From: a virus
Taxonomy: Duplodnaviria; Heunggongvirae; Uroviricota; Caudoviricetes
Direction: 5' to 3' (one strand)
DNA: 64,000 nucleotides
Virus record (IMG/VR): IMGVR_UViG_3300037129_000090
The first letter of the stretch is position 1. Every line of letters begins with the position of its first letter. This document shows, one piece after another, positions 1,361 to 64,000 of the stretch. Made by a program: the position numbers and the translations under genes. Under the pieces are notes generated by a model. The model made no database searches, had not been told where the DNA came from, and saw only the letters and a program-made list of their open reading frames with translations.

Positions 1361-1503
1361 AGTTGTTGAATAAAACGATATCTATAGCAATGCTTATCCT
1401 TATATACTATGAAGTCTATGTTATTATACATTATTTATATATCTGTAATTTACAAAAATATTATTTAATCATAGTTTTTGTAGACGTAGAAGGAGTTTGT
1501 ATT

Positions 1504-4550: not shown

Positions 4551-5135
4551 ATGAAAGCTGGAGAAGTACTTAAGGTTCTGCACATCTCAAGACCAACACT
4601 CTACAGGTATGCAGAGGCTGGCTACATTAAAAGACGCTTACTTCCGAATAAGAAGTACGACTATGACGATGAAAGCGTCTACAGCTACCTTAACAAAGAT
4701 GTCAAGAGGAAGACAGTAATTTACAGCAGGGTCTCCACTACAAAGCAAAAGAAAGACCTTGAGAACCAGATTGATTACCTAAAAAACTGGGCTTTCAATA
4801 CTGGCTATCAGATTCATAATGTCTACTCTGATGTCGCTTCTGGAATTTCATTTGATAAGAGGAAGGACTTCTTCTTGATGCTTGATGAGATTCTGGATTA
4901 CAAGGTAGAAAATGTAGTAATAGCCTACAAGGACAGATTAAGTCGAATAGGATTTGAGTTGTTCTCAATCTTGTTTGCTAAGTTCGGAACTAAAATAATA
5001 GTGGTCTCCGAAGTAGGAAGCAAGAAACTGGACACTGAGGAAATCTTCGAAGAAATAATCTCACTTCTCCACTGCTACAGCATGAAGTACTACAGTAACA
5101 GGAAGAATAAAAAACTCGAAATTGAGATTGAATGA
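4551..5135 (+). CDS. tnpA: IS607-type serine recombinase TnpA
   Basis: N-terminal MerR-like HTH (LKVLHISRPTLYRY) plus resolvase-like core with catalytic-serine region VIYSRVSTTKQ. Confidence 0.85.
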   Translation: MKAGEVLKVLHISRPTLYRYAEAGYIKRRLLPNKKYDYDDESVYSYLNKDVKRKTVIYSRVSTTKQKKDLENQIDYLKNWAFNTGYQIHNVYSDVASGISFDKRKDFFLMLDEILDYKVENVVIAYKDRLSRIGFELFSILFAKFGTKIIVVSEVGSKKLDTEEIFEEIISLLHCYSMKYYSNRKNKKLEIEIE

Positions 5136-5146
5136 GGTGATAGAAA

Positions 5147-13599: not shown

Positions 13600-13616
13600 A
13601 TGCTTAGGTGGTTGAC

Positions 13617-26716: not shown

Positions 26717-27136
26717 ATGTGCGTTGACAATATATTTGCAGGCAGAGAGCGTGCTTCAGAGATTTTAAACACAATAGAACCTGAAGATGGCGAATTTTTA
26801 TATGGTGAGAGAAATGGCGGGATAGGTTATTGTCCTTTTAAGTATGTAAAAGATGGTCAAGAATTCGTGGCGACAGTTCGGACGACAAATCGAAATTTTG
26901 TGAAAATCGATCCTCGAATGTTAGCAACAAATATTGCGGCAGCGGAAGACAGAGAAATCGAACATGTATTGATTGTTGTTTTTAATTGGCTTTCCTCAAA
27001 AACGATGTTTATAGTACGTAATTGTGAAAGTTATATTCATCACGAAACAAACGGCTGGCGTTATAAGGTCTTTAGAAAAGATCACTTATCTACAATCGCA
27101 CGGGGTGGCTCAAATGGCGATGTTCAACTTTTATGA
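26717..27136 (+). CDS. hypothetical protein
   Basis: SD GGTGAT. Confidence 0.5.
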   Translation: MCVDNIFAGRERASEILNTIEPEDGEFLYGERNGGIGYCPFKYVKDGQEFVATVRTTNRNFVKIDPRMLATNIAAAEDREIEHVLIVVFNWLSSKTMFIVRNCESYIHHETNGWRYKVFRKDHLSTIARGGSNGDVQLL

Positions 27137-28202
27137 AGTGCCTCGCGCCTTCGGTACTCCTTCTCAAACAGTTGTCAAGACAGAAGAGGACTTACACCGT
27201 CTTATCCATACTAATATTGGCAAAACACCTATTTTCATTTCACACAATTCTTTTCCTGCATTTGTTAAGAATAAAGTGGGTTTTGAAGAACCGTCACAAG
27301 TGAATGTGTCTAAAATCTTTCTTGATTTTGATTCCGACCGTAAACCTGAAAATGCGCAGCTTGATGCGATAAAGGTAATCGACTTTTGTGAAAGTGAAAA
27401 CTTACCTTTCATTGTTGCTTTCTCGGGTTCTAAAGGATTTCATATATACATCGCGTTAAAGCCCACCGTTTATAACTATGGGCAGTTCCTGAAAGATGCA
27501 ACTAAAGCGATTCACGTTTGGTTGCAGCAAAAACTTGGTCTCAGGACACTTGACTTAAAATGTGCAGAGCCGCGTAGATTGTGTCGAGTCTTTTACACCC
27601 CTCACGTCAAAACAGACAAGAAGACAGGTAAGGCATATGCGAATGGCATGTATTGCTGCCCTCTAGAACCTATGTGGGTTCGTGACTGGCGTATGGAGCA
27701 AATAATGCGATTTGCTATGTCTCCTGTAAAGATAAATTATAAACCAAAAGGATATTGCATTACATTAGATGATTTTCTCACTAAATTCGACATAAATATA
27801 GAAGAAATGTTAAAGGCATCGGTTAGTGAGTCGTGTTCTTCTAGAAATTCATTGGTTGAGTACATACCTGTAAACGATGAGTATATTAAATCTATTCTAC
27901 CACTTCCATGTATTCATTCTCAAATAGCTCATAATCCCAATCCTTGTCATTTTGCGAGATTCGCCGCAGCCTGTTGGTTGCATGACATTGGTTTGGATAG
28001 AAGTGTAGCATTTAAGTTTTTTAAAGCAAGGAACTACGTCGATCATAAAGATGATGTGTGTGCAACTCAAATAAATAACATCTATGATCACGGTTACAAG
28101 TTTCCTTCATGTAGTAAACTTTACGAGAATTCACTCTGTGTAGGTAAGGCGTGTCCAAAGTTCGAAGCTTTTGCGAGACGGTCTAAGATCGTAGCAGAGT
28201 AA
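27114..28202 (+). CDS. archaeo-eukaryotic primase (AEP) superfamily primase-polymerase
   Basis: FLDFDSD (DxD) and FSGSKGFHIYI motifs. Likely start MAMFNFYEV after GGGGTGG; the listed ORF from 27024 is over-extended. Confidence 0.8.
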   Translation: MAMFNFYEVPRAFGTPSQTVVKTEEDLHRLIHTNIGKTPIFISHNSFPAFVKNKVGFEEPSQVNVSKIFLDFDSDRKPENAQLDAIKVIDFCESENLPFIVAFSGSKGFHIYIALKPTVYNYGQFLKDATKAIHVWLQQKLGLRTLDLKCAEPRRLCRVFYTPHVKTDKKTGKAYANGMYCCPLEPMWVRDWRMEQIMRFAMSPVKINYKPKGYCITLDDFLTKFDINIEEMLKASVSESCSSRNSLVEYIPVNDEYIKSILPLPCIHSQIAHNPNPCHFARFAAACWLHDIGLDRSVAFKFFKARNYVDHKDDVCATQINNIYDHGYKFPSCSKLYENSLCVGKACPKFEAFARRSKIVAE

Positions 28203-28778: not shown

Positions 28779-29081
28779 ATGGACATATCTTATCAATTTG
28801 TAGCATTCGTTGTGTTATTGCTTCTGGGCGTAGTCATACTTGATAGTGCGGTTTCATCGCAAGGCGATAGCTTGAACAGTTTAAATAATTATACTCTTAA
28901 CTTTACCCAGAATCCCCAAGCTGGAAGTACGTTAGTTGTAGACCATCAGGTGTTTGAGTTCACAAATAACACATCATTAAATGATGGTAACATTCCTGTG
29001 TTTATCGACGCCGATGTGAATACTACGGCAGCCAATCTTAAGCAAGCGATTGGTAATCATACAAGTCTGGTGGTCTCGTAA
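28779..29081 (+). CDS. small secreted/membrane glycoprotein-like protein, translationally coupled to the giant surface protein
   Basis: Signal/TM segment VAFVVLLLLGVVIL; several N-x-S/T sequons; stop overlaps the next ATG (TAATG). Confidence 0.5.
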   Translation: MDISYQFVAFVVLLLLGVVILDSAVSSQGDSLNSLNNYTLNFTQNPQAGSTLVVDHQVFEFTNNTSLNDGNIPVFIDADVNTTAANLKQAIGNHTSLVVS

Positions 29082-32000
29082 TGAAAACAATGAACATTAT
29101 ACTTTCAGCTTTATTTATTTTATTGCTAGCAGGAATGGCTGGTGTTGCGTCGGCTCAAGCTTATTGGATCGATAATAATAATAATATGTGGGTTAATACA
29201 AGTATACCAGCTGGTATAAACACTACAACACTTTATGTTACAAAAACAGCTGGCAATATATCTAATGGAAGTAATGTGTTTGATTTGTATGATGAATTTA
29301 ATGGCAATACATTGAATAATTCATGGATGAAAATTAGTAATCCAACAACGGCAAGTGTGGGTTCAGGTATCTTGACAGTTAAGCCATCTGGTGGTTCTGC
29401 TTTCATTGGTGGTGTAAGAACAACATCGAATTTGTCTAATAATGATTTCATATTAGATACACGTATGTCTTTTGATAATTATAATGGTGCGATAATGTAT
29501 CGTGCCAGTAATAGTAATTTTTATCCAGGTGATTTTGTGTGGGTTCAAGATACTGGTGCGTGGGGATTTTCTCATAAGCCAACTGCCACAACTTATATTC
29601 TTGATACTAGTGGTGGAATATGCGCAAGTGACACTTATTTTAATCTTACACTTAAAGTATATGGAAATAATATTGAGTTGTACAAAGAGGGTGTATTACA
29701 GAAGACAACTAGTGATTCTAGCATGCCAGCGAGTGGGGGTATAGGTTTTTCATCATGGAGTGGTGGTGGTGCTGATAATAATAAAATAGATTTCGTCAGA
29801 GTTAGAAAATACAATGCAACTGAACCAACTGTAAGTGTTGTGACAAATGGTGTCTCAGGTTATATAGTTAATATATCAAGTGGTACGTCACTTACAAATT
29901 ATCAAGTTAACATAAGTGGTGCGGCTTTAGGTGTTACATCTGCTGGTGATTCATATTCAGTAAGTACTACCCCACCGGGTTTAATTTCGTTTACTTCAAA
30001 TGTAACGTCTGGTACATATCCTTTAACTGTTAAATTCAATGACACATCTTCTAATTCACCAACTATATGGGCATGGAATTTTGGTGATAATACAGCTAAT
30101 GTTACAACACAAAATTGTACACATACTTTTGTGGGTGTTGGAACGTTTACTGTTACACTTGGTGCAACCAGTAATGGGATTACTACATATGCACAGCAAA
30201 CAGTAACTGTAAACAAAACAACTCCAACTATAACATGGTCAAATCCAGCCAACATAACTTATGGAACTGCTTTATCTGGTACACAACTCAATGCAAATGT
30301 AGCTTCTCCTGCTGGTTCAATTACATATAGTCCTGATACAGGTGCGGTACTTGCAGCTGGTACTCAAACGTTAGGCTGTACATTTACACCTACTGATACT
30401 GCTAATTACAGTACAGCCACAGGTAGTGTATCTTTAGTTATTAATAAAGTTACTCCAGTTATAACATGGACTGTGCCTGACGCTATTACTTACGGCACAG
30501 CACTTTCTGGTACTCAATTATCAGCTACGTGTCCTCAAACAGGGTCTTTCACATACAATCCTGTGAGTGGAACAGTGATTGCAGCTGGAACTCAAATTTT
30601 ACAAACTACATTCACACCATCTGGTGCAGATGCTACTAACTATACAACAAACATAGCTTCTGTAAATTTAACTGTGAACAAAGCGACGCCAGTAATTACA
30701 TGGGCTACACCAGCAGCGATTACCTATGGTACAGCTTTGTCTGCAACGCAATTATCAGCCACGTGTCCACAATCAGGTAATTTTGTGTATTCACCTGTTA
30801 GTGGTACAGTACTGGGTGTGGGTAACAAAACACTATCAACTACATTTACTTCGTCAGGTGCAGCTGCTGTAAATTATACGAATAATACAGCATCGGTATA
30901 TTTAACTGTAAATAAAGCAATACCAAGTATTACATGGGCTACGCCGACAGCTGTAAATTATGGAACAGCATTAAGTGATACGCAATTGAATGCAACTTCT
31001 GCAACTGCTGGTGCAATGACATATATTCCTGCTTCTGGAACAATATTGGCGGCTGGCAATCAGACACTTAATGTCACATTAACTCCGACAGACATAGCTA
31101 ATTATACCACTGCTACGGCTTCTGTGACACTCGTAATCAATAAAATAGTGTCTGTTATATCATGGGATACGCCTGAAACTATTGACTATCCGACTGTATT
31201 AAGCGCAACACAATTAAATGCAACTTGTAATGCACCTGGTACATTAGTTTATACTCCGCCAGTTGGTACTTTATTAGGTGTAGGAACGCATAATCTTAGT
31301 GTTACATTTACACCGTCAGACCTGACCAATTATACAACAGCTACAGACCAAGTCGCACAGATCGTTATAAATCAAAATAAGACTAATTTAACATGGATTC
31401 CTCCCGCAGACATAGTATATGGTACGCCATTGAGTGCAACGCAACTAAATGCTAGTGGTGGTGATATACCTGGTGTTTTTACATATGCTCCAGCAACTGG
31501 AACTGTATTGGGTGTAGGTACACAGATTCTTAATGCTACGTTTACACCAACAGATTATCTAAATTATTCAGGTAATTCAATAAATGTAACATTGAATGTG
31601 ACACAAGCAACACCAACAATTACTTGGAGTACACCAGCTAACATAACTTACGGAACTGGTTTATCTACAACCCAATTGTCTGCTACTTCTCCACAATCAG
31701 GAAGTTTTGCCTATTCACCTACAACAGGCACTATATTTGGTGTAGGTACACATACTCTAAATACAACATTTACACCGTCTGGTGCATCTGCGGTAAACTA
31801 TACCACAAATACAGCTTCTGTAAACTTAATAGTTAATCAAGCAACACCAAGTATTACATGGAGTAATCCAGCGGCTATAACTTATGGAACAACATTGAAC
31901 TCTACTCAACTTTCAGCAACTTGTATTGCAGCTGGTACATTTACATATACACCAGCGAGCGGGTACATAATGCACGCGGGCGCTGGACAAACTCTACATG

Positions 32001-35000
32001 TGGACTTTGCGCCAACAGATGCTGTAAATTATACAGTGGCTTCAAAAGATGTCGCAATAACGGTGAATAAAGGCACAACCAGTTTCACAGCTAATGTAAG
32101 TACAGTTACTATACCTGCTGGTGTACAATTTACAGATACTTCAACAGGTGCACCGACTCATTGGTCTTGGGACTTTGGTGATGGAACTACCGATACTGTG
32201 CAAAATCCAATACACTATTTTACCACAGCTGGTCATCATAGTGTAACTTTGAATTTCTCGGACTTCGCAAATTACACCTACGAATCTGGACCAACCGATA
32301 TTTTTGTGCTTAATGCAATACCAGTTGCAAATATCACAATGAATGGAAAGCAGGGCGCAATCAATACAACTGCACCATTAATAGCTTACTTTAATGATAC
32401 TTCAAACGGTGTAAATATTACACAATGGTCTTGGGATTTCAATGATACTATGGGTGGTCTTCAATATGCAACAACTCAGAATGCCACTCACGTATTCCCA
32501 TTGGCTGGTAATTATACAGTAACGTTAGCTGTAACAAACGATGGTGGTATTAATACTACAGAAATGCCAATAACAGTTGTTGGTGGCGGAGGTACTGGTG
32601 GACCACAAAAACCAATCGCTGGTTTCTCTGCGAATGCATCAATTGGTTATATTCCATTAACTGTACAATTCACGAATGTTAGTGCATTTACACCTACTTC
32701 ATGGCGTTGGGATTTCGGTGACAATACAAATAGTACTCTAGAAAACCCAATTCACACCTATCCAGATCGCGGTGTATATAATGTTACATTCACTGCGACA
32801 AATGACTATGGATCAGATACAGCACAGTGTATTAACTTTATTCATACATACTACGCTCCGCCTGTTACTAACTTTATCACAAATGTAACTAATGGCGATA
32901 TACCTCTAAATGTTCAATTTACCGATACATCAACAGGTATAATTTCCGCGTACAATTGGTCATTTGGTGATGGTACGTATAGTACAGAACAAAATCCAAT
33001 ACATGTATATACGCAAATTGGTTTGTATAATGTATCGTTGAATGCAAGTAACATAGACAATAACTATACAGTTACAAGAGTCAACTACATAGTTGTGGGC
33101 GTACCAATACCTGCACCAGTGGCTGATTTCAATGCAAATATTACAAGTGGAGCTGCACCTACAACAGTTCAGTTTGTTGATAATAGTACTGGTCCGGTTA
33201 GTAATTACACGTGGGATTTTGGTGATGGTATTGGTTCGTATACTCAAAATCCAGTACATGTATATGCAAATAATGGTAATTACACAGTTTCGTTAAATGT
33301 TAGTAATACAAAAGGGTTTAATGTATCAACAAAATATAACTATATAGTTGTAGCAGAAAGTATACCAGTGCCAGTTTCAGATTTCCATGCAGTAACTACA
33401 TCTGGTGGTGTACCTTTCAGTACACAATTTATAGACGATAGTACTGGTATTGTGCAGAGTCGTGTATGGGATTTCGGAGATGGTAACACAGCGACATCAC
33501 AGAATCCAACACACACCTATACACAAGTTGGTGTTTATACTGTCTCGTTGAATGTGAGTAATAGTAATGGATTCAATGTGTCAGTCAAAGCAAATTATAT
33601 AAATGCGACTTCACAATCACCAGCACCAACTGCGGCATTCCATGCAGTAACCGCCACAGGAATACCACCACTCGATGTACAGTTCATAGATGATAGTACA
33701 GGTGTTGTTGATAATCGTGACTGGGATTTCGGCGATGGTAGTACAGCACATTCACAGAATCCAATACACACGTATACGCAAGCAGGTACTTATACAGTTA
33801 CATTGAATGCCAGTAACTTCAATGGATTTACTACTTCGACAAGAACTAATTACATTGGTGTTAGTGCTGTAGAACCAGCACCAGTTTCTGCATTCCATGC
33901 AAATATGACTGGTGGATTAGTACCTCTAACTGTTCAGTTTGTAGATGACAGCGATGGTAATGTCTCTGGTAGAGTGTGGAATTTCGGTGATGGTAATGGT
34001 TCGAGTGCATTGAATCCAATACATACATATTCAACAGTCGGTGTTTATACAGTTTCTTTGAATGTAAGTAATGCTGGTGGTTCTAATGAATCAATGAAAG
34101 TAGGTTATATTAATGCAACAGACATTGCAATCCCGCACCCACCACTTGCCTCATTCAGAGAGAATGTAACTGGTGGAATTGCGCCGGTTACAGTACAATT
34201 CAAAGATACAAGTAGTAATACACCAACATACTGGTTATGGAACTTCGGAGATGGTGTAGGAACAAATGAGCAGAACCCCACCCACACATATACAGTACCT
34301 GGTACTTACAATGTAACATTGGAAATTGGTAATGTTGATGGAAATGATACAATCTCCGAGCTTGTAAATGTGTTAAAACCAATTAGTATACCAGTTGCTA
34401 ATTTCACTTCGGATGTTAGTGTAGGTGGGCTACCACTGACCGTACATTTCATAGACCTTTCGAGTAATGACACAGCTAATTGGTTATGGGACTTTGGTGA
34501 TAATAATACGGCTATAATCGAGAGTCCTACCCATGTATACCAGCAAGCTGGAAATTACACAGTTAATTTAACTGTGAATAACTCTGCCGGTAGCAACACA
34601 ATGACAAAGATTGATTACATAGTTGTAGGCAACCAAGTAAGGGCAAATTTTACAACAAATAACACGAATGGTACAGTTCCTCTGTTTGTTCAATTCACCG
34701 ATGTGTCGACAGGTTCACCGCAGAACTTTAGTTGGAATTTCGGAGATAATGCAACAAGCACAGAGCAGAATCCGATGCATGAATACAATGTATCTGGAAA
34801 CTACAGTGTTTCAGAGACTGTGGGGTTAGGTAATGCGAATGATACAATGACAAAAACGGATTATATTACAGCGCAATTACCATCAGCTGCACCACCGATC
34901 GCTCAGTTCTATGTGAGTGAAACCAATATTTCAATACCAGATGGTGTAGATACCAACACATCCGTGAAATTTACCGATACTTCGATAGGTGTTGGTATTA

Positions 35001-35617
35001 ATGCATGGGTGTGGGTGTTTGGTGATGGAAATACCAGTAATGAGCAGAACCCGACTCATATCTATCAGAAACCTGGCACATATAACGTTGTGTTGACAGC
35101 CACTTCACCGTATGGCACATCTGTTTCTGCACCGACAACGTTGAACATCATACAAGGCGCACCAAATGTAACTATGATGGTAAATGTGTCTGAAGGGTAT
35201 GTTCCCTTAACAGTAGCATTCATAGATTCAACTACTAATGTGAGTGGGCAAACATATTGGGATTTTGGTGACGGTAGTACTTCGAATGAATCTAATCCTA
35301 TTCATACATATATTGACGATGGTATTTATGGGGCTACGTTAATTGTAAATAGGAATGGACAAAATTATAGTATTACTCAGATGATCAATGCACATTACGT
35401 TACTGTGGCGACAGTAAAAATTAATGCGACTCAGCAGGACCAGATGCTAGATGTAAATTCAACAGCCGGTAAATCATTGAGATTGGAACAAACAAGCAAA
35501 CAATCAGCAATGTATGGTGCTGTTCATGCAGTTGAAAAAGGAACAAGCGGCGGATACACCTTATTAGTTGTGGCAATTCTAATATTGGGTGCTCTATCAT
35601 TCTGGTTCTTGTTTTAA
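29081..35617 (+). CDS. giant secreted surface protein: signal peptide, ConA-like/LamG-like N-domain, about 12 Ig-like MBG-like repeats (loose family call), about 18 PKD domains, C-terminal TM anchor
   Basis: Signal peptide ...GVASA|QA; repeated ITYGTALS..TQL.AT...GTF.Y.P..GT.LAAG.QTL...FTPTD..NY units; repeated W.FGDG..S.EQNP.HTY PKD motifs; C-terminal hydrophobic LLVVAILILGALSFWFLF; very high density of N-x-S/T sequons. Confidence 0.85.
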   Translation: MKTMNIILSALFILLLAGMAGVASAQAYWIDNNNNMWVNTSIPAGINTTTLYVTKTAGNISNGSNVFDLYDEFNGNTLNNSWMKISNPTTASVGSGILTVKPSGGSAFIGGVRTTSNLSNNDFILDTRMSFDNYNGAIMYRASNSNFYPGDFVWVQDTGAWGFSHKPTATTYILDTSGGICASDTYFNLTLKVYGNNIELYKEGVLQKTTSDSSMPASGGIGFSSWSGGGADNNKIDFVRVRKYNATEPTVSVVTNGVSGYIVNISSGTSLTNYQVNISGAALGVTSAGDSYSVSTTPPGLISFTSNVTSGTYPLTVKFNDTSSNSPTIWAWNFGDNTANVTTQNCTHTFVGVGTFTVTLGATSNGITTYAQQTVTVNKTTPTITWSNPANITYGTALSGTQLNANVASPAGSITYSPDTGAVLAAGTQTLGCTFTPTDTANYSTATGSVSLVINKVTPVITWTVPDAITYGTALSGTQLSATCPQTGSFTYNPVSGTVIAAGTQILQTTFTPSGADATNYTTNIASVNLTVNKATPVITWATPAAITYGTALSATQLSATCPQSGNFVYSPVSGTVLGVGNKTLSTTFTSSGAAAVNYTNNTASVYLTVNKAIPSITWATPTAVNYGTALSDTQLNATSATAGAMTYIPASGTILAAGNQTLNVTLTPTDIANYTTATASVTLVINKIVSVISWDTPETIDYPTVLSATQLNATCNAPGTLVYTPPVGTLLGVGTHNLSVTFTPSDLTNYTTATDQVAQIVINQNKTNLTWIPPADIVYGTPLSATQLNASGGDIPGVFTYAPATGTVLGVGTQILNATFTPTDYLNYSGNSINVTLNVTQATPTITWSTPANITYGTGLSTTQLSATSPQSGSFAYSPTTGTIFGVGTHTLNTTFTPSGASAVNYTTNTASVNLIVNQATPSITWSNPAAITYGTTLNSTQLSATCIAAGTFTYTPASGYIMHAGAGQTLHVDFAPTDAVNYTVASKDVAITVNKGTTSFTANVSTVTIPAGVQFTDTSTGAPTHWSWDFGDGTTDTVQNPIHYFTTAGHHSVTLNFSDFANYTYESGPTDIFVLNAIPVANITMNGKQGAINTTAPLIAYFNDTSNGVNITQWSWDFNDTMGGLQYATTQNATHVFPLAGNYTVTLAVTNDGGINTTEMPITVVGGGGTGGPQKPIAGFSANASIGYIPLTVQFTNVSAFTPTSWRWDFGDNTNSTLENPIHTYPDRGVYNVTFTATNDYGSDTAQCINFIHTYYAPPVTNFITNVTNGDIPLNVQFTDTSTGIISAYNWSFGDGTYSTEQNPIHVYTQIGLYNVSLNASNIDNNYTVTRVNYIVVGVPIPAPVADFNANITSGAAPTTVQFVDNSTGPVSNYTWDFGDGIGSYTQNPVHVYANNGNYTVSLNVSNTKGFNVSTKYNYIVVAESIPVPVSDFHAVTTSGGVPFSTQFIDDSTGIVQSRVWDFGDGNTATSQNPTHTYTQVGVYTVSLNVSNSNGFNVSVKANYINATSQSPAPTAAFHAVTATGIPPLDVQFIDDSTGVVDNRDWDFGDGSTAHSQNPIHTYTQAGTYTVTLNASNFNGFTTSTRTNYIGVSAVEPAPVSAFHANMTGGLVPLTVQFVDDSDGNVSGRVWNFGDGNGSSALNPIHTYSTVGVYTVSLNVSNAGGSNESMKVGYINATDIAIPHPPLASFRENVTGGIAPVTVQFKDTSSNTPTYWLWNFGDGVGTNEQNPTHTYTVPGTYNVTLEIGNVDGNDTISELVNVLKPISIPVANFTSDVSVGGLPLTVHFIDLSSNDTANWLWDFGDNNTAIIESPTHVYQQAGNYTVNLTVNNSAGSNTMTKIDYIVVGNQVRANFTTNNTNGTVPLFVQFTDVSTGSPQNFSWNFGDNATSTEQNPMHEYNVSGNYSVSETVGLGNANDTMTKTDYITAQLPSAAPPIAQFYVSETNISIPDGVDTNTSVKFTDTSIGVGINAWVWVFGDGNTSNEQNPTHIYQKPGTYNVVLTATSPYGTSVSAPTTLNIIQGAPNVTMMVNVSEGYVPLTVAFIDSTTNVSGQTYWDFGDGSTSNESNPIHTYIDDGIYGATLIVNRNGQNYSITQMINAHYVTVATVKINATQQDQMLDVNSTAGKSLRLEQTSKQSAMYGAVHAVEKGTSGGYTLLVVAILILGALSFWFLF

Positions 35618-35939: not shown

Positions 35940-37375
35940 AAGATTATAAGTGGGGTCAACTACCGCTAGGCTAAAGACCTAGCGGCTTGTAATTTCCTCA
36001 GATTTTACAATTTGATTCAAACGCTAAAAACAAACGCTTTGGTCTGTTGACTAGACCTCTACTAACTATCTTCTGTATAGGAGAATCGCTAGCTACTTTT
36101 CTCAATATATTTAATGCACCATTTACATCTGCATTAATTAATTGACCAGTAATACTTTTATACAAGCCTCTCTTAACACGTCTTGATTTACCATAAGGTT
36201 GTTTTTTAATTTCATCTAAAGCCAAAGCATCGGTTCTACTTGTATATGCTTCATCAACTAATTGATATTTGATACCATAGTAGTCACATTTACTTTGAAG
36301 CTTACCTTTGAATTTTCCAAATGGTATTGACACAAAGCTCTGATTATTGCGCTTGCCATGATTTATTCCTTGCTTTATTTCCTTAAGTTCACCGATTAGA
36401 ATATTACCTATCTTATTTTCTAAACAGTGTTTTATGATGTAGTTAACTGTTCGGTTCATGAACTCTGATATCTTGTTAGCGCGTTTAGTTAAGAGTTTAA
36501 TCTGCTTATTTGTTATTAATTTTATTCCTTGTTTATCTTTGATACTCTGTAATCTAGCATTCTCCTTGTTATACCACTGGTTAATAGATTTTATATACTT
36601 ACCATCTATGATAATGGCAGTCCCATCGGTATCTATCCAAGTTGCAAAATTAGAAACGCCTAAATCTATGCTAAGATATTTAGAGTAATCAAGTTCTTGT
36701 TGTTGTTTCTTTTCTTCATAACAATATTTTATTTTGAAATACCGCCCATCATACATCGGTATGACATGAACTTCTTGTATACTGAACTTTTTAGTTCTCA
36801 ATGGTTTTGGTAATTTAAAAGTTAACAGCTTTTTAGCATTCCTGTTTTGCTTTAGAAACTCAATTGAAATACCCAACCGTATATTATTACCTTTGAATGA
36901 AAAAGCATTCTTAGGAAATGCTATCAAGAAATTACTATCTTTGTTAAGATAATGTGGTATATTAGGTTTATCCAATTGTCCATTTCTATAGAGTTTTAAC
37001 AAACCAAAAAAGCTTCGCATCCCTCTTTCTACCATCTTCAGAGATTGCTGAGCACTAGCCGCCTGCATTAACTTATAATTCTCATCTTCCTTGCAAAGAT
37101 GATAATTTTGAGGATATTTCAAAAATTCATTATTATTGAAGAAATATTGTCGAGTGTTATACAATCCTAAATTATACAAGTTTTTAGAAGCGCGACTAAG
37201 TGACCTCAACATTATATATTGTTCCTTGTTTAATCTAAGATTATTTGTGATACTCAACATTATGTATACATAATGTGATATTTGTATATATACTTTTGTC
37301 TAAATCAAATTGTATTTAACTTCCGGTCGCAATTCATCCACGAAACTAAAGATTTCGTGGTTTTCTTATGAACCT
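35940..37375 (-). mobile_element. IS200/IS605-like non-autonomous element (tnpB only)
   Basis: Subterminal hairpins with identical loop TCTTTAG at both ends on the minus strand: CCACGAAA-TCTTTAG-TTTCGTGG (37346..37368) and CCGCTAGG-TCTTTAG-CCTAGCGG then TAGTTGAC (35950..35982). No tnpA. Confidence 0.65.
35998..37260 (-). CDS. tnpB: TnpB, paralog of the IS607-associated copy; zinc finger absent
   Basis: Ruv[10 protein letters not shown], RuvC-II ...LVDEAYTSR, Ruv[15 protein letters not shown]. No Cys pairs between II and III. N-terminal [18 protein letters not shown] matches ASKNLFNFSNYLVRQRFF of 5147..6379. Confidence 0.85.
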
Positions 37376-42046: not shown

Positions 42047-43159
42047 ATGTTAAAAGCCTACAAATATCGACTATATCCTACAAAGAACCAAGCTGATCAA
42101 TTTAATCAGCATATCGGTAGTTGTAGATTTGTCTATAATTGGGCTCTTGACCAGAAAATTAAAGCATATGAACAAACAGGTAAATCTGTATCAAGATATA
42201 CATTAAATAAACTTATACCATCTCTTAAAACCAATAGTCCGTGGTTAAGTGAAGTTAATTCACAATCATTACAGGGAATGACTAAACAGGTAGAATCTGC
42301 TTTCACTAAATTCTTTAGAGAAAAAGCAGGTTTCCCAAAGTTCAAATCTAAGAAGAATCCAATACAGTCATTTCCAGTACCACAGCATTATGAAGTAGAT
42401 TTTGATAGTGGTACAATCAAGTTACCTAAGATAGGTGACGTGAAAGTTGTTCTACATAAAAAATTTACAGGTACTCTTAAAACTGCTGTTATCTCAAGAA
42501 CAGTCACAGGCAAGTATTTCATTAGTGTCCTAGTTGATAATAATGAAGCTACTCCTAGTAAATCTATATTTTCTGAAATAACAACTGTAGGTGTAGATGT
42601 TGGTATCAAGGATTTTGCAGTTCTCTCGACAGGAGAAAAAGTAGAGAATCCAAAATATCTTAAAAATTCGATTCATAGACTAAAATGTCTTCAACGAAGA
42701 GTATCAAAGAAAGTTAAGGGTTCTAAAAATAGAAATAAAGCAAGACAACATCTTTCAAAGATTCATGAAATCATTACCAATCAAAGAAATAATTTCCAAC
42801 ACAAAATCTCTTCTAGATTGATATGCGAGAACCAAGCTATAGCGTTGGAAACTTTGAATGTTAAAGGTATGTTAAAGAATCACTGTCTTGCCCAATCGAT
42901 AAGTGATGTAGCATGGAGTAGTTTTGTAACTAAGTTAGAGTACAAAGCCGAATGGTTCGGAAAAACCATACTTAGAATAGGTAGATTTGAACCGTCGAGT
43001 AAGACGTGTAGTATTTGTGGCTATCGTAATAATACTCTAACATTGAAAGATAGGGAATGGGAATGCCCTGATTGCAAAACAAAACATGATAGAGATATTA
43101 ATGCGGCGATAAACATTAAGAAATTTGCATTAATAGATCAGAATTTAATCGGAATATAA
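42047..43159 (+). CDS. tnpB: TnpB (canonical, with zinc finger)
   Basis: RuvC-I VGVDVGIKD, RuvC-II LEYKAEWFG, Zn finger CSICGY...CPDCKTKHDRD, RuvC-III DINAAINI. Confidence 0.9.
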   Translation: MLKAYKYRLYPTKNQADQFNQHIGSCRFVYNWALDQKIKAYEQTGKSVSRYTLNKLIPSLKTNSPWLSEVNSQSLQGMTKQVESAFTKFFREKAGFPKFKSKKNPIQSFPVPQHYEVDFDSGTIKLPKIGDVKVVLHKKFTGTLKTAVISRTVTGKYFISVLVDNNEATPSKSIFSEITTVGVDVGIKDFAVLSTGEKVENPKYLKNSIHRLKCLQRRVSKKVKGSKNRNKARQHLSKIHEIITNQRNNFQHKISSRLICENQAIALETLNVKGMLKNHCLAQSISDVAWSSFVTKLEYKAEWFGKTILRIGRFEPSSKTCSICGYRNNTLTLKDREWECPDCKTKHDRDINAAINIKKFALIDQNLIGI

Positions 43160-58482: not shown

Positions 58483-58857
58483 TTATGCTTTTATCATTTG
58501 TACTCCTGTTATGTGTTCACCCTTAACGTTTCTTAACTTCTCGCTTTCATCGAAAACGATTATCTTAACATTTGCGTTTAATATCGCTTCTTTATGTTTC
58601 TTGAATAAAACATAATCAATAATTATTATGCTTCCGGTTATTTCTACAGCTTTAAAGCCCTTGATTTCCTGTACTGTTTCAGTTTCACCGAAGAACTTTT
58701 CCGCTTCATTTACCCAGTTCTGTTTTAAGATAGTCTCGCAAACAATCACTGAGGGTCTCGCTTCTTTGTTGTTCAGTAAATAATTTAATGATTGAATTGT
58801 TTTTCCTGTTCCCATTTCTTCTAACATAGCTTTAAGCCTCCGATTTTCATTAATCAA
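58483..58857 (-). pseudogene. SNF2 helicase N-terminal fragment (motifs I-II only), decayed paralog of 54714..57056
   Basis: EEMGTGKTIQSL (motif I) and IIVFDESEKLRN (motif II), aligning with IIINYDMLKKYKEEIKQLNPQIMVFDESHMLKN of the full gene. Ends after 124 aa. Confidence 0.55.
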
Positions 58858-60094: not shown

Positions 60095-60180
60095 CTCCTT
60101 GTTATTGTGAAAATTTGTTTTGTGGTTTGCATTTCACCACAAAAGATAATAGTACATTTTAGTATTTAAGCCTTGTTATT
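60095..60180 (-). promoter_or_regulatory. conserved promoter module: ATAACAAG-GCTTAAATA (TATA-like) - N17 - palindromic operator TTTTGTGGT-N9-ACCACAAAA - SD
   Basis: Copy 1 of at least 4 near-identical modules (others at 60655..60735, 61905..61995, 63200..63300). Confidence 0.5.
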
Positions 60181-61143: not shown

Positions 61144-61452
61144 TCAGAAATTATAATCATAAAACTTTACTGGAACATCAGAAATAATATGTTTACCGTA
61201 TTTACTCCAATAAAAGCCGTCTTTCCTCATATAAGCTTTTATTAATGGGTTGTTTTCGTTTTGCGCTATTATCCATTCTTGTTTATTGTTATTCGTACAA
61301 ATTGCAGAGAAGCCGCCTTCAACGTATTCAGGTTTAAAAGCCTTCTCAAATTGCATTTGTCTTATTGTTATTGTTTTTTTCGTTTCCTTTATTACTTCAA
61401 AAGGTACAATATCAGAATATCCATGTAAGTTAGCATATTTTTTTTCTTCCAT
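61144..61452 (-). CDS. hypothetical protein
   Basis: ORF only. Confidence 0.45.
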   Translation of the reverse strand: MEEKKYANLHGYSDIVPFEVIKETKKTITIRQMQFEKAFKPEYVEGGFSAICTNNNKQEWIIAQNENNPLIKAYMRKDGFYWSKYGKHIISDVPVKFYDYNF

Positions 61453-61475
61453 GTTAACCGCTTCCTGAAAAAGGA

Positions 61476-61748
61476 TTAATAGAAGTTATAAGCTTTTACC
61501 GCGTCACCGCTTGCATGAAGCTTAATTAAAATGTGGTCGTCGTATCCGTCAAACCCTTCCATAAACTTTGGAGGGTTCACACAATACACTTTATTATGCA
61601 AGTTCATTATTTCGTCTAAGAAGTATTTGTTACCTCTGAATACAAAATAACTTCTACAGTCTTCCTCTTCACTCTCAGGAACATCAGTCTGAATTTCAAG
61701 CCAATGTTCGTTTCCGGTTATTGTAACACCGTCTATTGTTTTCTTCAT
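61476..61748 (-). CDS. hypothetical small protein
   Basis: Upstream tandem AAATCAAGTTATAATA repeats. Confidence 0.5.
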   Translation of the reverse strand: MKKTIDGVTITGNEHWLEIQTDVPESEEEDCRSYFVFRGNKYFLDEIMNLHNKVYCVNPPKFMEGFDGYDDHILIKLHASGDAVKAYNFY

Positions 61749-61774
61749 TCTTTAAAACCTCTTATTTTATTATG

Positions 61775-61820
61775 ACTTGATTTTATTATAACTTGATTTT
61801 ATTATAACTTGATTTAAGTA
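61775..61820. repeat. tandem direct repeat, 16-bp unit acttgattttattata x about 3
   Basis: Perfect copies at 61775..61790 and 61791..61806, partial third copy. Lies between the tRNA-Asp 3' end and the next gene start. Confidence 0.6.
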
Positions 61821-61827
61821 TCAAGTA

Positions 61828-61899
61828 CGCCAATGTCGGGAATTGAACCCAAATCCAAACGCCGACAACGTTTGATGATAGCCATTACACTACATTGGC
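61828..61899 (-). tRNA. tRNA-Asp (anticodon GTC), no encoded CCA
   Basis: Manual fold of the reverse complement GCCAATGTAGTGTAATGGCTATCATCAAACGTTGTCGGCGTTTGGATTTGGGTTCAATTCCCGACATTGGCG: 7-bp acceptor, D-loop with GG, perfect anticodon stem AAACG/CGTTT with loop TTGTCGG, T-arm TTGGG-TTCAATT-CCCGA, discriminator G. Confidence 0.75.
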
Positions 61900-61904
61900 A
61901 TTTA

Positions 61905-61995
61905 CTTTTATTTAACCTCTTATCTGTTTTGTGGTTTGCATTTTACCACAAACATTAAAGAACGTTTCAATATTTAAAGCTTGTTATTCGTATTT
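61905..61995 (-). promoter_or_regulatory. conserved promoter/operator module, copy 3, upstream of tRNA-Asp (GCTTTAAATA ... TTTGTGGT-N9-ACCACAAAA)
   Basis: Same module as copies 1-2 and the plus-strand copy at 63200..63300. Confidence 0.5.
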
Positions 61996-62159
61996 TGTTA
62001 GTTTTCTGGTAAAACGCTATTTTTAGCTTAAACAGCCTAAGTATAGCGTTTTACCATTTGGATAGTGACAAATATGATAGAATCAATTTTCTGTATATCG
62101 TTTCTGGTAATGTGGTTTCTCCTTCCTAATGGATTTTAGTTATCAGTCAATCTTCTATA

Positions 62160-63180
62160 CGCATATGCGCCCGCGTATATGTCACTTGTATGTGATCATG
62201 TCACACGTACTTGTATTCGTGTTATACGCGCATATCCGCGCATATGTGCCCATGTCATACGTATATGCGCCATTTCATTAATGCGCCCGCGCATGTTAAA
62301 ACGCGCCCGCGTATTAATTAATGCGTAATGCGTATGTCAAAAGGCTATATAGCTGATATATCCGATTTGATACGTTTAATATATCAGCTTTCCATACTAT
62401 TTAGCTTATGTTTTACTACCTATTCTTATCATTCCTCCATGATTCGATACTACTACAAATACCTCTGAGAATATAAAGCTTTCGTATGGTATGCTGTTAT
62501 TTTAGAATGTAGTATCTCATATATAACGCACTCGCATGATACGTATTATGCGCCCGCGTAATATGCGCCCGCGTGTATTATACGTATAGCGCATAATGCG
62601 CGTAATGTAGCAACCAATAGATTTATATGCAATAATGCCATAGTAATTGTATCGAATTTAAGCTAAAACAACAAAAAACACTATACGCGGGCGCGCATAA
62701 TGCGTATATGCGTATATAAAGGAGATTTGAAACATGGATATATTTGTATCTGGATTTATAGCGGGATTTATAGGTACTTTGTACGTAATCATTAATATTA
62801 GTAGTATATTGATAAACCTTAAAGCCATATTTGCTAAACGTACATAACGCGGGCATAATACGTATGCGGGCGCGTTTAATACGTATGCGTGTACGTATAA
62901 GACGCGGGCGCGATATACGTATATACGCGCATAATACGTTATGCAACGCGGGCGCGCATGATACGCATACGTATAATACGTTATGCGCGCATAATATACG
63001 TTATGTGTACGTATAGGCTTTAAGGTTTAATCTGAAAGTCTTATATATACGTATGCGTTATAATACGCGGGCGGGCGCGCATATATAGAGAGAATTAAGG
63101 CAAAAAGCAATAAATCAGGCTTTTTGAGTAATTCCCTATACGCGGGCGCGCATATAATAATATAACGCGGGCGCGCATAT
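62160..63180. repeat. array of about 13 GC-rich 10-bp motifs CGCGGGCGCG (each flanked by ATRCG/CGYAT) in inverted orientation around about 62630; putative origin/iteron or protein-binding array
   Basis: C-strand orientation (GCGCCCGCG) at about 62168, 62283, 62303, 62551, 62567. G-strand orientation at about 62690, 62868, 62904, 62948, 63064 (extended GGGCGGGC), 63142, 63168. A roughly 200-bp AT-rich motif-free gap at 62320..62545. Sits at the strand-switch point. Confidence 0.6.
62734..62847 (+). CDS. possible 37-aa hydrophobic peptide embedded in the repeat array
   Basis: Strong SD AAGGAGAT 7 nt before the ATG; sequence MDIFVSGFIAGFIGTLYVIINISSILINLKAIFAKRT. Confidence 0.3.
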   Translation: MDIFVSGFIAGFIGTLYVIINISSILINLKAIFAKRT

Positions 63181-63199
63181 AATGACGTAAAATAGCTTA

Positions 63200-63300
63200 A
63201 ACTTAGCTAAAAAGGATAAAACCAATAGCTTTAAATAGATTACTTGCATTAGTCTTATTGTGGTACGATTTACCACAAAACAACAAAATAAGGAGATAAC
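63200..63300 (+). promoter_or_regulatory. conserved promoter/operator module, plus-strand copy (GCTTTAAATAG ... TTGTGGTA-cgattt-ACCACAAAACAA - AAGGAGAT) driving the GHKL ATPase gene
   Basis: Aligns base-for-base with the minus-strand copies. Confidence 0.5.
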
Positions 63301-63305
63301 AAGCG

Positions 63306-64000
63306 ATGCAACAAGAAATAATGGAAAATCGAGAAATAGCTAGAATCAAGGTAGATTTTAACTATTTCAAAACATGTGCAAAAAGAGAATATACGCAAAA
63401 ATTACCGGTAATCTGGATTAGGGAAGCATTGCAGAATTCGACCGATGCGGGCGCGGAAAACGTTTGGATTGAGTTAACCGATGACGAAATTACCTTTACA
63501 GATGACGGAAAAGGTATGGATTCAAATATCATTAACAATAAGCTGTTAACTCTCGGCGGGTCATTAAAAGACGCGGGCGCGGTCGGGGGATTTGGAAAAG
63601 CAAAAGAAGTTTTGTTTTTCTGCCATGAAGAATGGAGTATTACAAGCTGTCCGAATAAAAATACTAAATACTTCATTAATCACCAAATGATTGACAAAGT
63701 ACCAATAAGGATCACTAAGGGCGAATTTACTAAGGGAACAGAAATAAAAATAAAATATGATCCTAACGAATGTAATAAACAAACATGGGCTTCATGTATA
63801 AGGGACTTTGTTTCAACCTGTAGTACAAAAACTAAAATCTTCCTTAACTGCGATGAATTAGTTAAATTGGAAAATAGAGGAAAATGCATTGAGTATGACA
63901 TAGGAACACTCAGGATAAACAAAAGTAAGAAAACTAATAATGTCTATGTAAGAATAAGAGGAATTACAATGTTCTCCTTTTCGTCATGGGGAGACATTGA
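63306..64000 (+). CDS. GHKL-superfamily ATPase (MutL/Hsp90/MORC-like Bergerat fold), 5' partial, runs off the window
   Basis: Motif N IREALQNSTDAGA and motif G1 DDGKGMD; a second Gly-rich segment GGSLKDAGAVGGFGK. Confidence 0.7.
   Translation, partial: MQQEIMENREIARIKVDFNYFKTCAKREYTQKLPVIWIREALQNSTDAGAENVWIELTDDEITFTDDGKGMDSNIINNKLLTLGGSLKDAGAVGGFGKAKEVLFFCHEEWSITSCPNKNTKYFINHQMIDKVPIRITKGEFTKGTEIKIKYDPNECNKQTWASCIRDFVSTCSTKTKIFLNCDELVKLENRGKCIEYDIGTLRINKSKKTNNVYVRIRGITMFSFSSWGDI

Follow-up and report, generated by a model that had tools for sequence, protein, structure and literature searches.

A non-coding island of about 1 kb in this viral or plasmid-like DNA is a conserved cis-acting element, an array of CpG-centred quasi-palindromes of the form ATRCG-(core)-CGYAT. 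It lies at ~62150-63190 of the window (the whole stretch of 64,000 nt that was analysed), is the largest non-coding region there and has two outlying sites in the neighbouring GHKL gene. The island is probably a multi-site landing pad for a putative sequence-specific DNA-binding protein, which is itself probably dimeric. We tentatively propose, at somewhat less than even confidence, that it serves as an internal bidirectional replication origin of a ~77-kb extrachromosomal element. This element is uncultivated, virus or plasmid-like, and its host is an archaeon of the Methanosarcina type. Hardly any origin or cis-acting maintenance site has been mapped in large viruses or plasmid-like elements of methanogens and of organisms related to them, Borg and mini-Borg elements of Methanosarcinales included. 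The parts of the island and its flanks are listed here by coordinates, strand and feature.

60120-60142: third copy of the promoter/operator module
61929-61990, minus strand: leftward promoter module, with TATA GCTTTAAATA at 61971-61980 and an operator palindrome at 61929-61951
62007-62056, no strand: inverted repeat (I6) separating the leftward promoter from block A; its arms of 20 nt are 90% complementary
62150-62340, minus strand: block A, with GCGGGCGC at 62167-62174, 62283-62290 and 62303-62310, and further units ATACGCAT, ATACGCGCAT, ATACGTAT and ATGCGTAT
62341-62519, no strand: motif-free gap of 179-181 bp, ~30% GC
62351-62361 and 62379-62389: perfect 11-bp inverted repeat in the gap
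~62470-62478, minus strand: TATA of a predicted promoter-like BRE/TATA element (cgaaagCTTTATATT) in the gap
62520-62610, minus strand: block B, with GCGGGCGC at 62550-62557 and 62565-62572, and ATACGTAT and GCGCATAATGCGCG units
62611-62684, plus strand: AT-rich spacer, 26% GC, where the motif polarity switches, with a predicted plus-strand promoter at 62621
62685-62733, plus strand: first plus-strand site region, with ATACGCGGGCGCGCAT (62683-62698, holding GCGGGCGC at 62687), two ATGCGTAT units and the Shine-Dalgarno sequence of the small ORF
62734-62847, plus strand: small hydrophobic ORF of 37 aa (MDIFVSGFIAGFIGTLYVIINISSILINLKAIFAKRT), led by a Shine-Dalgarno sequence
62848-63190, plus strand: block C, with six exact GCGGGCGC (62866, 62904, 62948, 63071, 63142, 63167), variants at 62849 and 63067, and many ATACGTAT, ATACGCGCAT and ATGCGCGCAT units
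63101-63126: terminator-like hairpin, then T5, after most of block C
63220-63288, plus strand: rightward promoter module, with TATA GCTTTAAATA at 63228-63237 and operator TTGTGGT-N7-ACCACAA at 63258-63278
63447-63454 and 63573-63580, plus strand: GCGGGCGCGG copies inside the GHKL gene

The 8-mer GCGGGCGC has 15 exact copies in the window, against a chance expectation of about none. Twelve are inside 62160-63180, two are on the plus strand of the GHKL ATPase gene (63447 and 63573) and one is at 31976. The exact 10-mer CGCGGGCGCG is found seven times in the window and never in 100 dinucleotide-preserving shuffles. The island also holds two variants of the 8-mer, GCGGGCAT at 62849 and the overlapping GCGGGCGG at 63067, so that the initial annotation, which had counted about 13 copies within 1 kb, was accurate, and the motif is not equally frequent outside (12 copies against 3). 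The flanks ATRCG...CGYAT that it had described likewise fit the consensus around the core, atAC-GCGGGCGC-(GC)AT. No other multi-copy 8-mer cluster exists in the window, and the array is unique within 71 kb of element sequence. The island is not an assembly artefact, since two other contigs from two samples span all of it with 0 mismatches; two further contigs cover it in part.

The sites are strictly polar. All five minus-strand copies of GCGGGCGC lie left of 62610 and all seven plus-strand copies in the island lie right of it, a segregation with a chance of 2/792, in agreement with the orientation split seen earlier near 62630. GGG and CCC triplets in the island are partitioned by strand in the same way. 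The switch is not at the motif-free gap but at the 76-bp spacer (62611-62684). Successive copies are 116, 20, 247, 15, 120, 162, 17, 38, 44, 123, 71 and 25 bp apart, an irregular spacing without helical phasing.

The GCGGGCGC sites form one subclass within a far larger family of palindromes centred on CpG, which the first reading had missed. Quasi-palindromes of the type ATRCG-(0-12 nt)-CGYAT number 25 in the island (1.15 kb) and five in the other 62 kb; ATRCG is enriched 24-fold in the island, and ATRCGYAT is found there 13 times and four times elsewhere. The core lengths of the palindromes vary (8-20 bp), and one rigid dimer would not read all of them alike. Purine-pyrimidine alternation reaches 0.72-0.83 in the blocks (0.77 in block A, which has 21 CpG in 191 bp, and 0.83 in block B), compared with a window mean of 0.50 and a maximum of 0.65 elsewhere. 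Of the 35 alternating runs of at least 12 nt, 12 are in the island; the four longest in the window (17-21 nt) are among them, and the 21-nt runs are in block C. Thermodynamically, few parts of the window are more stable than the palindrome blocks.

Two copies of the motif extend into the GHKL coding region and, as had been noted, both translate as D-A-G-A. They do so with rare codons (the codon-usage probability of GCG-GGC-GCG is ~0.003 per site), and the second DAGA is confined to this lineage. Judged from the coding sequence, the rare codons and the lineage-specific DAGA together indicate that DNA-level selection extends into the gene.

The motif-free gap does exist, with net limits of ~62341-62519, although its proposed role as an AT-rich unwinding element finds little in its composition, which is ordinary. 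Its GC content is 30%, against 36% for the window and 18-31% for four other measured non-coding stretches, and its duplex instability is at about the 92nd percentile of the window. No significant RNA structure (fold z about -1.6) and no credible ORF were found in the gap, and we rejected its reading as a non-coding RNA or small gene, which has no conservation, structure, ORF or Rfam match. The spacer 62611-62684 is a paralogue of the GHKL promoter module that lacks the operator (AACCAATAGATTTATATGC...ATTTAAGCTAAAACAACAAAA; repeat families D13 and D15), and it lies at the 52nd-66th percentile of instability in an 80-bp window. The tiny, Shine-Dalgarno-led hydrophobic ORF reported inside the island is also called as a gene on an independent contig (L013); its 37-aa product has no family match. 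To the left of block A, 61981-62150 has a fold z-score of -5.8. In an Rfam search over 61400-63500, tRNA-Asp (61828-61899) alone passed the gathering threshold.

Two gene blocks diverge from the region, and homologous promoter/operator modules stand on both sides of the island, both as previously described. The rightward module precedes the GHKL gene, which starts at 63306, and the leftward one drives tRNA-Asp and the minus-strand operon. Three promoter copies carry the operator palindrome TTGTGGT-N7-9-ACCACAA at their start region. The nearest GCGGGCGC lies ~55 bp upstream of the TATA box at the rightward promoter and ~190 bp upstream at the leftward one, and the GCGGGCGC sites do not overlap the core promoter or the start of the flanking genes. 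Because the diverging operons have TATA and operator modules of their own, with the nearest sites 55-190 bp upstream, the island is probably not simply their operator. A transcriptional role is nevertheless possible, since both the gap and the spacer look like promoters.

The block architecture is kept in a distant relative, L021, whose flanking proteins are 44-47% identical to those of the window (GHKL 47%, SNF2 44%). L021 has the same three-block layout, with a gap of 179 bp between blocks A and B and a short spacer between blocks B and C. Its gap is close in length to the 181 bp measured here, with no similarity in sequence. The alternation of its blocks is 0.75-0.84, and its core motif has drifted to GCGCGCGTAWT. 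The positions and orientations of its promoters relative to the blocks differ, and both modules point one way. The only neighbours of the island kept in both elements are the GHKL (MORC-type fold) ATPase and the SNF2 ATPase; no small protein near the island is common to the two. We scanned 80 metagenome and 15 Logan/JGI loci with GHKL relatives for 8-mer arrays and CpG/alternation islands, and found an island in L021 and L022 only. A single diverged relative with an island was found, and the other relatives have GHKL homologues without any island. The contigs of the closest SNF2 relative (54% identity) end before the expected island. More distant SNF2 relatives are ordinary tailed phages. Among sequenced phages, no close relatives were found by DNA (near and distant modes) or by GHKL protein.

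The element encodes replication proteins of its own, namely a D5_N/DUF5906 primase-helicase, a PrimPol/PriL-like protein encoded at 27024-28202, and XPD-like, RecJ-like and Sak4-like proteins. The D5-like primase-helicase (1363-4248) is a plausible candidate initiator. Its gene is ~58 kb from the island on the contig, or ~15-16 kb if the full contig of 77,060 bp is circular. Among annotated genes the protein is best matched by PICI-type 'DNA primase' genes from Streptococcus satellite phages. Its matches among sequenced phages, to PICI and Nitrosopumilaceae virus primases, are all weak; three homologues were found in all, and PDB holds no sequence relatives. The P-loop ATPase at 11629, named in the initial annotation as a candidate initiator, is instead a Sak4/AAA_24-like recombination protein. 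P-loop ORFs in the 71 kb are XPD-like, Sak4-like, dTMP kinase, SNF2 and unrelated proteins. Neither AAA/Cdc6 matches among the scanned ORFs nor an orc1/cdc6 gene adjoining the island were detected. Pfam domains were absent from 20 small proteins near the island, so that a candidate binder was not found among them.

The opposed sites suggest how an origin of this kind could work. The 12-14 asymmetric GCGGGCGC-core sites, polar and in two opposed sets around the AT-rich spacer 62611-62684, would orient initiator and helicase assemblies in opposite directions, and the promoters embedded in the island may aid DNA opening. SaPI Rep origins and archaeal ORB/DUE origins are built on the same logic. 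Polar, conserved, under DNA-level selection and located at a divergence point and skew minimum, the array fits a cis-acting locus for protein binding, of which an origin is one example. The earlier proposal of a replication origin or control locus is thus supported in part, in that the array is non-random, polar, conserved and at the divergence point of the genes. The origin reading is weakened because the gap is not unusually AT-rich and no initiator gene adjoins the island. It is further weakened because the least stable DNA of the window (top 0.5%; 1087-1478, 18% GC) is directly upstream of the D5-like gene and not at the island; genes diverge at that segment too, and the skew reaches a minimum there. 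At the island the cumulative GC skew has a local minimum, but it follows the gene strand and has an equal minimum at ~1.5 kb; GC skew is inseparable here from gene orientation. The contig end at window base 1 is common to independent assemblies, and because of this shared end the genome may be linear and replicated from its termini, as proposed for mini-Borgs.

SaPI Rep origins have core repeats of 5-8 bp in 6-12 copies, as two opposed sets around an AT-rich centre, and SaPI initiators are self-loading helicases of the D5/DUF5906-type family, which this element also encodes (PMC9371898). The island shares with SaPI/PICI Rep systems the opposed site sets around an AT-rich centre (five minus-strand sites on the left, seven plus-strand sites, with two more in the gene, on the right) and the D5_N and DUF5906 primase-helicase encoded here. 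A SaPI origin lies directly downstream of rep, whereas the island is tens of kb from the D5-like gene, and the 300 bp downstream of that gene hold three weak TTAATCA repeats and no comparable array. In origins of the SaPI/P4 type, the cognate Rep binds the iterons through its winged-helix C-terminal domain. The island is also ~10 times longer, has quasi-palindromic sites with variable cores, promoters in its centre and an archaeal host. In archaeal chromosomal origins, ORB or mini-ORB repeats, to which Orc1/Cdc6 binds, flank a DUE (PMC5333045). The island shares with archaeal oriC the host domain, polar repeats in inverted sets, an AT-rich stretch and a long intergenic region, but its element has no detected orc1/cdc6 and its AT-rich segment is not exceptionally unstable. 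To our knowledge, the motif ATAC-GCGGGCGC-GCAT is unlike ORB consensus sequences.

Dyad-symmetric sites are also repeated beside an easily opened stretch in lambda and in theta plasmids, whose iterons are direct repeats at a regular spacing of ~20-22 bp, within or beside the initiator gene. In the island, by contrast, the spacing is 15-247 bp and the sets are inverted. Herpesvirus oriLyt regions are of kb scale, non-coding and set between divergent genes, with binding-site arrays, embedded or bidirectional promoters and transcribed GC-rich repeats. Their likeness to the island is one of architecture alone; there is no homology, and the hosts of oriLyt are eukaryotic. PMC8557881 mentions a bidirectional promoter within HCMV oriLyt.

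On a further, improbable reading, the island belongs to a previously undescribed type of origin or maintenance locus of archaeal extrachromosomal elements, that is, a novel kb-scale, promoter-containing locus of polar CpG palindromes, independent of Orc1/Cdc6 and unlinked to an initiator gene. Such a locus would always have the G-cluster strand outward, as the RNA-like strand, and might be read by a new initiator or fired by transcription-coupled opening (R-loop or Z-DNA).

The island could instead be a transcriptional control region, a reading that we consider rather unlikely yet the most probable of the rivals. Here the palindromes would bind an activator or silencer, from either the element or its host, that coats the 1.2-kb divergent region and controls how active the flanking and the two embedded promoters are, as an enhancer, a silencer or a lysis-dormancy switch. 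The island does lie between divergent promoters and contains both the promoter paralogue at 62611-62684 and the minus-strand BRE/TATA-like element at 62478; its dyad-symmetric sites are typical of dimeric transcription factors, and the nearest ones are 50-60 bp from TATA boxes, the distance at which archaeal upstream activators bind. However, the flanking promoters and the copy at 60120 already have a dedicated operator palindrome in common at the start region, and the sites number more than 25, some of them ~270 bp into the coding region, whereas the archaeal virus regulators known to us use far fewer than 25. The neighbouring small proteins have no detected DNA-binding domain, and in L021 the promoters do not keep their positions and orientations relative to the blocks. 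The conserved GHKL and SNF2 neighbours would fit another, improbable reading, in which the island is a centromere-like partition site or a nucleation site for genome compaction, bound by a CTP- or ATP-dependent clamp or adaptor that spreads from it, on the model of ParB-parS, R1 parC, omega heptad arrays or a MORC/SNF2-type machine. In R1 parC, the omega heptads of pSM19035 and ParB-parS, blocks of short repeats, direct and inverted, occupy a promoter-bearing intergenic region, and parS is a 16-bp CG-centred palindrome. The 16-bp quasi-palindromic sites of the island, in mixed-orientation blocks within a long non-coding region, resemble such centromere arrays, and no virion genes (terminase, portal or capsid) were recognised among the scanned proteins; the element, perhaps plasmid-like, may thus depend on segregation. 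Yet plasmid centromere arrays are contiguous whereas the island is irregularly spaced, GHKL homologues occur elsewhere without an island, and in the 71 kb we found no ParA-type deviant Walker A protein, no ParB, ParR or omega-like gene and no cognate ParA/ParM NTPase and adaptor gene beside the array.

Explanations that dispense with a dedicated sequence-specific binder, or place the function in RNA, appear still less probable. By its sequence the island would count as Z-DNA-prone, with long CG-rich alternating runs, and its CG/TA tracts might form Z-DNA or cruciforms under negative supercoiling between the divergent promoters and act as a torsional sink or switch. The high alternation of the blocks and their long runs speak for this, as does L021, which keeps the alternation rather than the exact motif, but we think it quite improbable: the most conserved core, GCGGGCGC, interrupts the alternation at GGG, strict polarity is meaningless for Z-DNA, and the runs are short, with many TA steps, from which Z-DNA forms poorly. 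It is very improbable that the blocks are a transcribed repeat or R-loop zone, read outward from internal promoters with the G-cluster strand RNA-like, in which the motif acts in RNA (a non-coding RNA or 3' UTR) or promotes R-loops. The polarity of blocks A and C and of the in-gene copies is co-directional with the rightward paralogue and the candidate leftward promoter, and the terminator-like hairpin with T5 at 63101-63126 would suit such a transcript; block B, however, is upstream of both candidate promoters and yet polar, the modules of L021 both point the same way, and there is no Rfam match. Least of all do we expect a pac-like site for packaging initiation, in which two clusters of methylatable palindromes flank a cleavage region in the style of phage P1 pac. 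Short palindrome clusters do lie on either side of the ~180-bp gap and the element encodes an N6/N4 DNA methyltransferase, but the packaging and virion genes noted above were not recognised, and contigs of different samples run through the island or end at scattered points, with no common terminus.

For the elements considered here, the island is a sharply bounded, conserved and experimentally tractable candidate: it spans 1 kb, its motifs follow a clear grammar, and a relative offers a natural variant of it. Should it support autonomous replication or stable inheritance, Methanosarcina vectors could be built directly with it. A role in replication would show how such elements replicate without Orc1/Cdc6-linked origins, and if the island is regulatory, its size would be unusual for a binding array of an archaeal element.

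A literature search on the motif returned nothing relevant. In IMG/VR, the 16-mer TACGCGGGCGCGCATA has 12 single matches, with no array and none resembling the element, and a mixed CG/ATACGTAT pattern, too strict even for the window itself, has 0 matches. Two GCGGGCGC cores 5-35 nt apart occur at 102 loci, which we dismissed as chance or coding repeats and not relatives; the most AT-rich of them has 44% GC, and the majority exceed 52%. Three ATRCGYAT units within 80 nt are present in more than 120 IMG/VR contigs. The large arrays among these are tandem repeats or ACGTATACGT arrays of another style, without CG cores, and a search on two of them gave no annotated relatives; we regard them as a separate phenomenon.

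The 64-kb window contains seven copies of the 10-mer CGCGGGCGCG, of which 100 shuffles yielded none, and 15 copies of the 8-mer GCGGGCGC. Twelve of the 15 copies lie within 62160-63180, two in the adjacent GHKL ATPase gene, and only one elsewhere (at 31976); the 7 kb beyond the window, supplied by contig L013, add one further copy. The initial annotation had described about 13 copies in 1 kb, in opposite orientations on either side of about 62630. These counts (12 exact sites and two variants, at 62849 and 63067) and the segregation of strands show the description to be correct: the minus strand carries every site left of 62610 (5/5), the plus strand every site right of it (7/7) together with the variants and the two in-gene copies. 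The chance of such perfect segregation of five and seven sites is 2/792. The oriented consensus of the sites is atAC-GCGGGCGC-(GC)AT. Nor is the region, hereafter the island, an assembly artefact, given that it is covered entirely and with zero mismatches by two other contigs from two different samples (and partly by two more). The features of the island and its flanks are as follows.

60120-60142, within the left operon: third copy of the promoter module
61929-61980, minus strand: leftward promoter module, palindrome at 61929-61951
62150-62340: block A, three minus-strand sites
between blocks A and B: motif-free gap, 181 bp
62520-62610: block B, two minus-strand sites
between blocks B and C: spacer of 76 bp, 26% GC, where the polarity flips
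62685-63190: block C, plus-strand sites, interrupted by a small ORF
62734-62847, inside block C: hydrophobic ORF of 37 aa
63228-63278, plus strand: rightward (GHKL) promoter module, next after block C, palindrome at 63258-63278

The initial observation is thus confirmed, and it is also extended: GCGGGCGC is merely the most conspicuous member of a larger palindrome family. The half-site ATRCG/CGYAT (63 copies) is 21-24-fold enriched in 62150-63190 relative to the rest of the window and CGCG 24-fold, while ATRCGYAT occurs 13 times against four in the remaining window and TACGTA 11 times against 11. Complete units of the form ATRCG-(0-12 nt)-CGYAT, such as ATACGTAT, ATGCGCGCAT, ATACGCGCAT, ATGCGCCCGCGTAT and ATACGCGGGCGCGCAT, number 25 in the parsed region and five in the other 62 kb. 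Purine-pyrimidine alternation reaches 0.72-0.83 in the blocks, whereas the window averages 0.50 and no 180-bp segment elsewhere exceeds 0.65, and the four longest alternating runs of the window are all in the island.

Both in-gene copies of GCGGGCGC encode D-A-G-A, as initially annotated, written GAY-GCG-GGC-GCG. Based on the codon usage of 14 long window ORFs, the probability of GCG-GGC-GCG is about 0.003 per A-G-A. The first DAGA is located in the conserved N-box of the ATPase, where homologues use other codons, and the second is confined to the present element and a 92% identical relative. Given the rare codons and the lineage-limited second DAGA, the array seems to run about 270 bp into the GHKL gene under DNA-level, possibly RNA-level, selection. 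The GHKL family itself (L013:6185-7729; window 63306 onward) comprises proteins of about 500 aa with an HATPase_c_3 domain. Its conserved C-terminal signature, HExxH...H...E..F, suggests a metal-dependent domain; PDB sequences include no relative of the family, and phage records gave no match.

Among 95 loci with GHKL homologues, the island is present in only one other element, of which two datasets supplied one contig each (L021 and L022). There, as in the window, it is flanked by an SNF2 helicase gene (minus) and the GHKL gene (plus), whose proteins share 44% and 47% identity, respectively, with those of the window. The layout follows the same order: block A (103 bp), gap (179 bp, compared with 181 bp in the window), block B (101 bp), a short spacer and block C (211 bp). 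Alternation in the blocks (0.75, 0.84 and 0.74) and ATRCG/CGYAT enrichment are also the same. Drift has turned the commonest core into GCGCGCGTAWT, full GCGGGCGC sites number only two (one per strand), and the gap sequences are unrelated, with a local alignment score inside the range of shuffled sequences. A constant grammar and gap length with a drifting motif would be the pattern of a cis-acting element that co-evolves with its binding protein. Near the full-length SNF2 gene, both elements have small ORFs similar to the N-terminal portion of the SNF2 domain (58483-58857 and L021:2265-2606), the latter directly adjoining the island.

In agreement with the initial annotation, the genes diverge from this region and promoter modules flank it. 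The modules at which the two operons begin are homologous to each other and archaeal in type. The modules consist of AATAACAAG-CTTTAAATA, in which CTTTAAATA is the TATA box, then about 20 nt, the palindrome TTGTGGT-N7-9-ACCACAA, and AAACA. Because it is located at the expected transcription start, the palindrome is predicted to be the natural operator of the diverging promoters, probably one that the early operons share as the target of a repressor. A tRNA-Asp (61827-61900, minus strand) lies within the leader of the minus-strand operon, and a 16-nt tandem repeat (ATTTTATTATAACTTG, 3.2 copies, 61764-61815) just ahead of its first gene. Between the leftward promoter and block A is an inverted repeat (62007-62056, 20-nt arms, 90% complementary) that could terminate transcription, form a cruciform or serve as a further binding site; the fold z-score of the surrounding 61981-62150 is -5.8. 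Block C contains a perfect 8-bp hairpin (CAAAAAGC / GCTTTTTG, 63101-63126) with a T5 end on the plus strand, which looks like the terminator of the 37-aa ORF transcript.

The AT-rich gap, initially suggested as a possible unwinding element, is not conspicuous as one. Its GC content is 30%, compared with a window average of 36% and 18-31% in four other measured non-coding stretches, and its duplex is only at about the 92nd percentile of window instability; the island blocks are among the most stable DNA in the window. On its minus strand the gap carries a good BRE/TATA-like element (cgaaagCTTTATATT, 62478), and the polarity-switch spacer is a paralogue of the GHKL promoter module that lacks the operator (families D13 and D15).

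The window is part of an uncultivated element of about 77 kb, which may be a virus or plasmid-like; a protein identical to the D5-like one is encoded on a 77,060-bp contig. No relatives were found among sequenced phages. The best relatives of the IS transposase (42047-43159) are in genomes of Methanosarcina and other Methanosarcinaceae (70-76% amino-acid identity) and one GHKL homologue is labelled as from a Methanogenium MAG; the host is therefore an archaeon of the Methanosarcina type. Contig L013 (window 43229-71034) breaks about 70 bp past the transposase gene. Two other mobile-element gene sets are an IS607-like pair of serine recombinase and TnpB (4551-6379) and a second TnpB (35998-37260, minus strand). 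Genes for replication and nucleotide metabolism include the D5_N/DUF5906 primase-helicase, a PrimPol/PriL-like protein, XPD-like, RecJ-like and Sak4-like proteins, and a PD-(D/E)XK nuclease. A QueE-like radical SAM gene (13608-15443) and an N6/N4 DNA methyltransferase gene (23571-25871) both have an apparent intein-like insert (HINT/HNH and LAGLIDADG-like, respectively), and the element may modify its own DNA through a 7-deazaguanine pathway and methylation. A protein of 2178 aa, which carries 14 or more PKD domains (29081-35617), resembles surface proteins, an unusual cargo for a region of replication genes. A contig of 30,120 bp from a different sample (JGI 3300038475; L420:1-2) stops 1 bp short of window base 1, and this common end is suggestive of a physical end of the genome or the edge of a repeat; the 71 kb available show no terminal repeat. 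Methanoperedens is known to have linear mini-Borg-type elements that are similar in size and GC content.

The island probably offers many landing sites to a putative DNA-binding protein that would be sequence-specific and probably dimeric. The single most likely function of the island, which we propose tentatively, would be that of an internal bidirectional replication origin. The initial proposal of an origin or control locus is supported in part: the island is the sole iteron-like cluster in 71 kb, has two polar site sets opposed around an AT-rich spacer, coincides with a gene-divergence point and a GC-skew minimum, is conserved and extends into coding DNA, is distinct from the promoter operators, and belongs to an element encoding a helicase-initiator of a family whose known origins follow exactly such logic. 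However, the initiator gene is away from the island, skew is inseparable from gene strand, site spacing is irregular, palindrome core lengths vary, and both gap and spacer are occupied by promoter-like elements. DNA stability in the window is lowest directly upstream of the D5-like gene (1087-1478, 18% GC), within another divergent intergenic region (1025-1500) that holds 16-nt tandem repeats (1206-1244), has an equal, second cumulative GC-skew minimum and is an alternative origin candidate. Moreover, with a contig of another sample ending within 1 bp of window base 1, the genome may be a linear one whose replication starts at its ends. A new type of origin, promoter-containing, Orc1-independent and built from polar CpG palindromes, is a reading of low probability.

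An array acting as a transcriptional enhancer or silencer is a less likely alternative to the internal origin; the CG sites nearest to the TATA boxes are 55-190 bp upstream of them, and ordinary repression of these promoters is already explained by the operator palindrome, which speaks for a different or an additional role of the island. A partition or compaction site, for which the only conserved neighbours of the island (a MORC-type GHKL ATPase and an SNF2 ATPase) would speak, is quite unlikely, and the P-loop ORFs lack a ParA-type deviant Walker A motif. It is improbable that the island is a non-B-DNA torsional element, and more improbable still that it is a transcribed repeat or R-loop zone. 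Least probable of all is a pac-like site; no capsid, portal or terminase was recognised among the scanned proteins. Origins and maintenance sites are essentially unmapped so far in this group of elements.

Through its opposed polar repeats the island is nearest in working to SaPI/P4-type origins and to archaeal origins with ORBs around a DUE (PMC5333045). In SaPI Rep origins, 6-12 short iterons flank an AT-rich centre, two or more per side, and point in opposite directions (PMC9371898). Unlike SaPI/P4-type origins, the island does not adjoin the initiator gene, and unlike archaeal origins it lacks an Orc1/Cdc6 partner, no Orc1/Cdc6-type match being found among the scanned ORFs. Its irregular spacing differs from the regular phasing of iteron origins, no cognate par operon of the kind that accompanies centromere arrays was found, and its sites do not overlap core promoters as promoter operator arrays do. 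As these features of membership failed and Rfam gave no match, the island is placed in no known family and is described as a repeat-array cis element.

Numerous dispersed ACGTATACGT / ATACGTAT palindromes, in part separated by GC-rich hairpins, occur in non-coding islands of several AT-rich IMG/VR contigs (L397:2050-2900, L378:3780-4560, L344:600-1100, L326:960-1420 and L300:1500-2350). Unlike the window island, these islands are of a different motif style, without CG cores; neither of the two checked (L326 and L397) yielded annotated relatives. In elements with more distant GHKL homologues (JGI 3300040998, 3300040999 and 3300038998), the intergenic DNA is full of near-perfect tandem repeats with 16-33-nt units (L027:2448-2786, L031:1990-2165 and 892-981, L028 and L032), which recall Borg-type elements.
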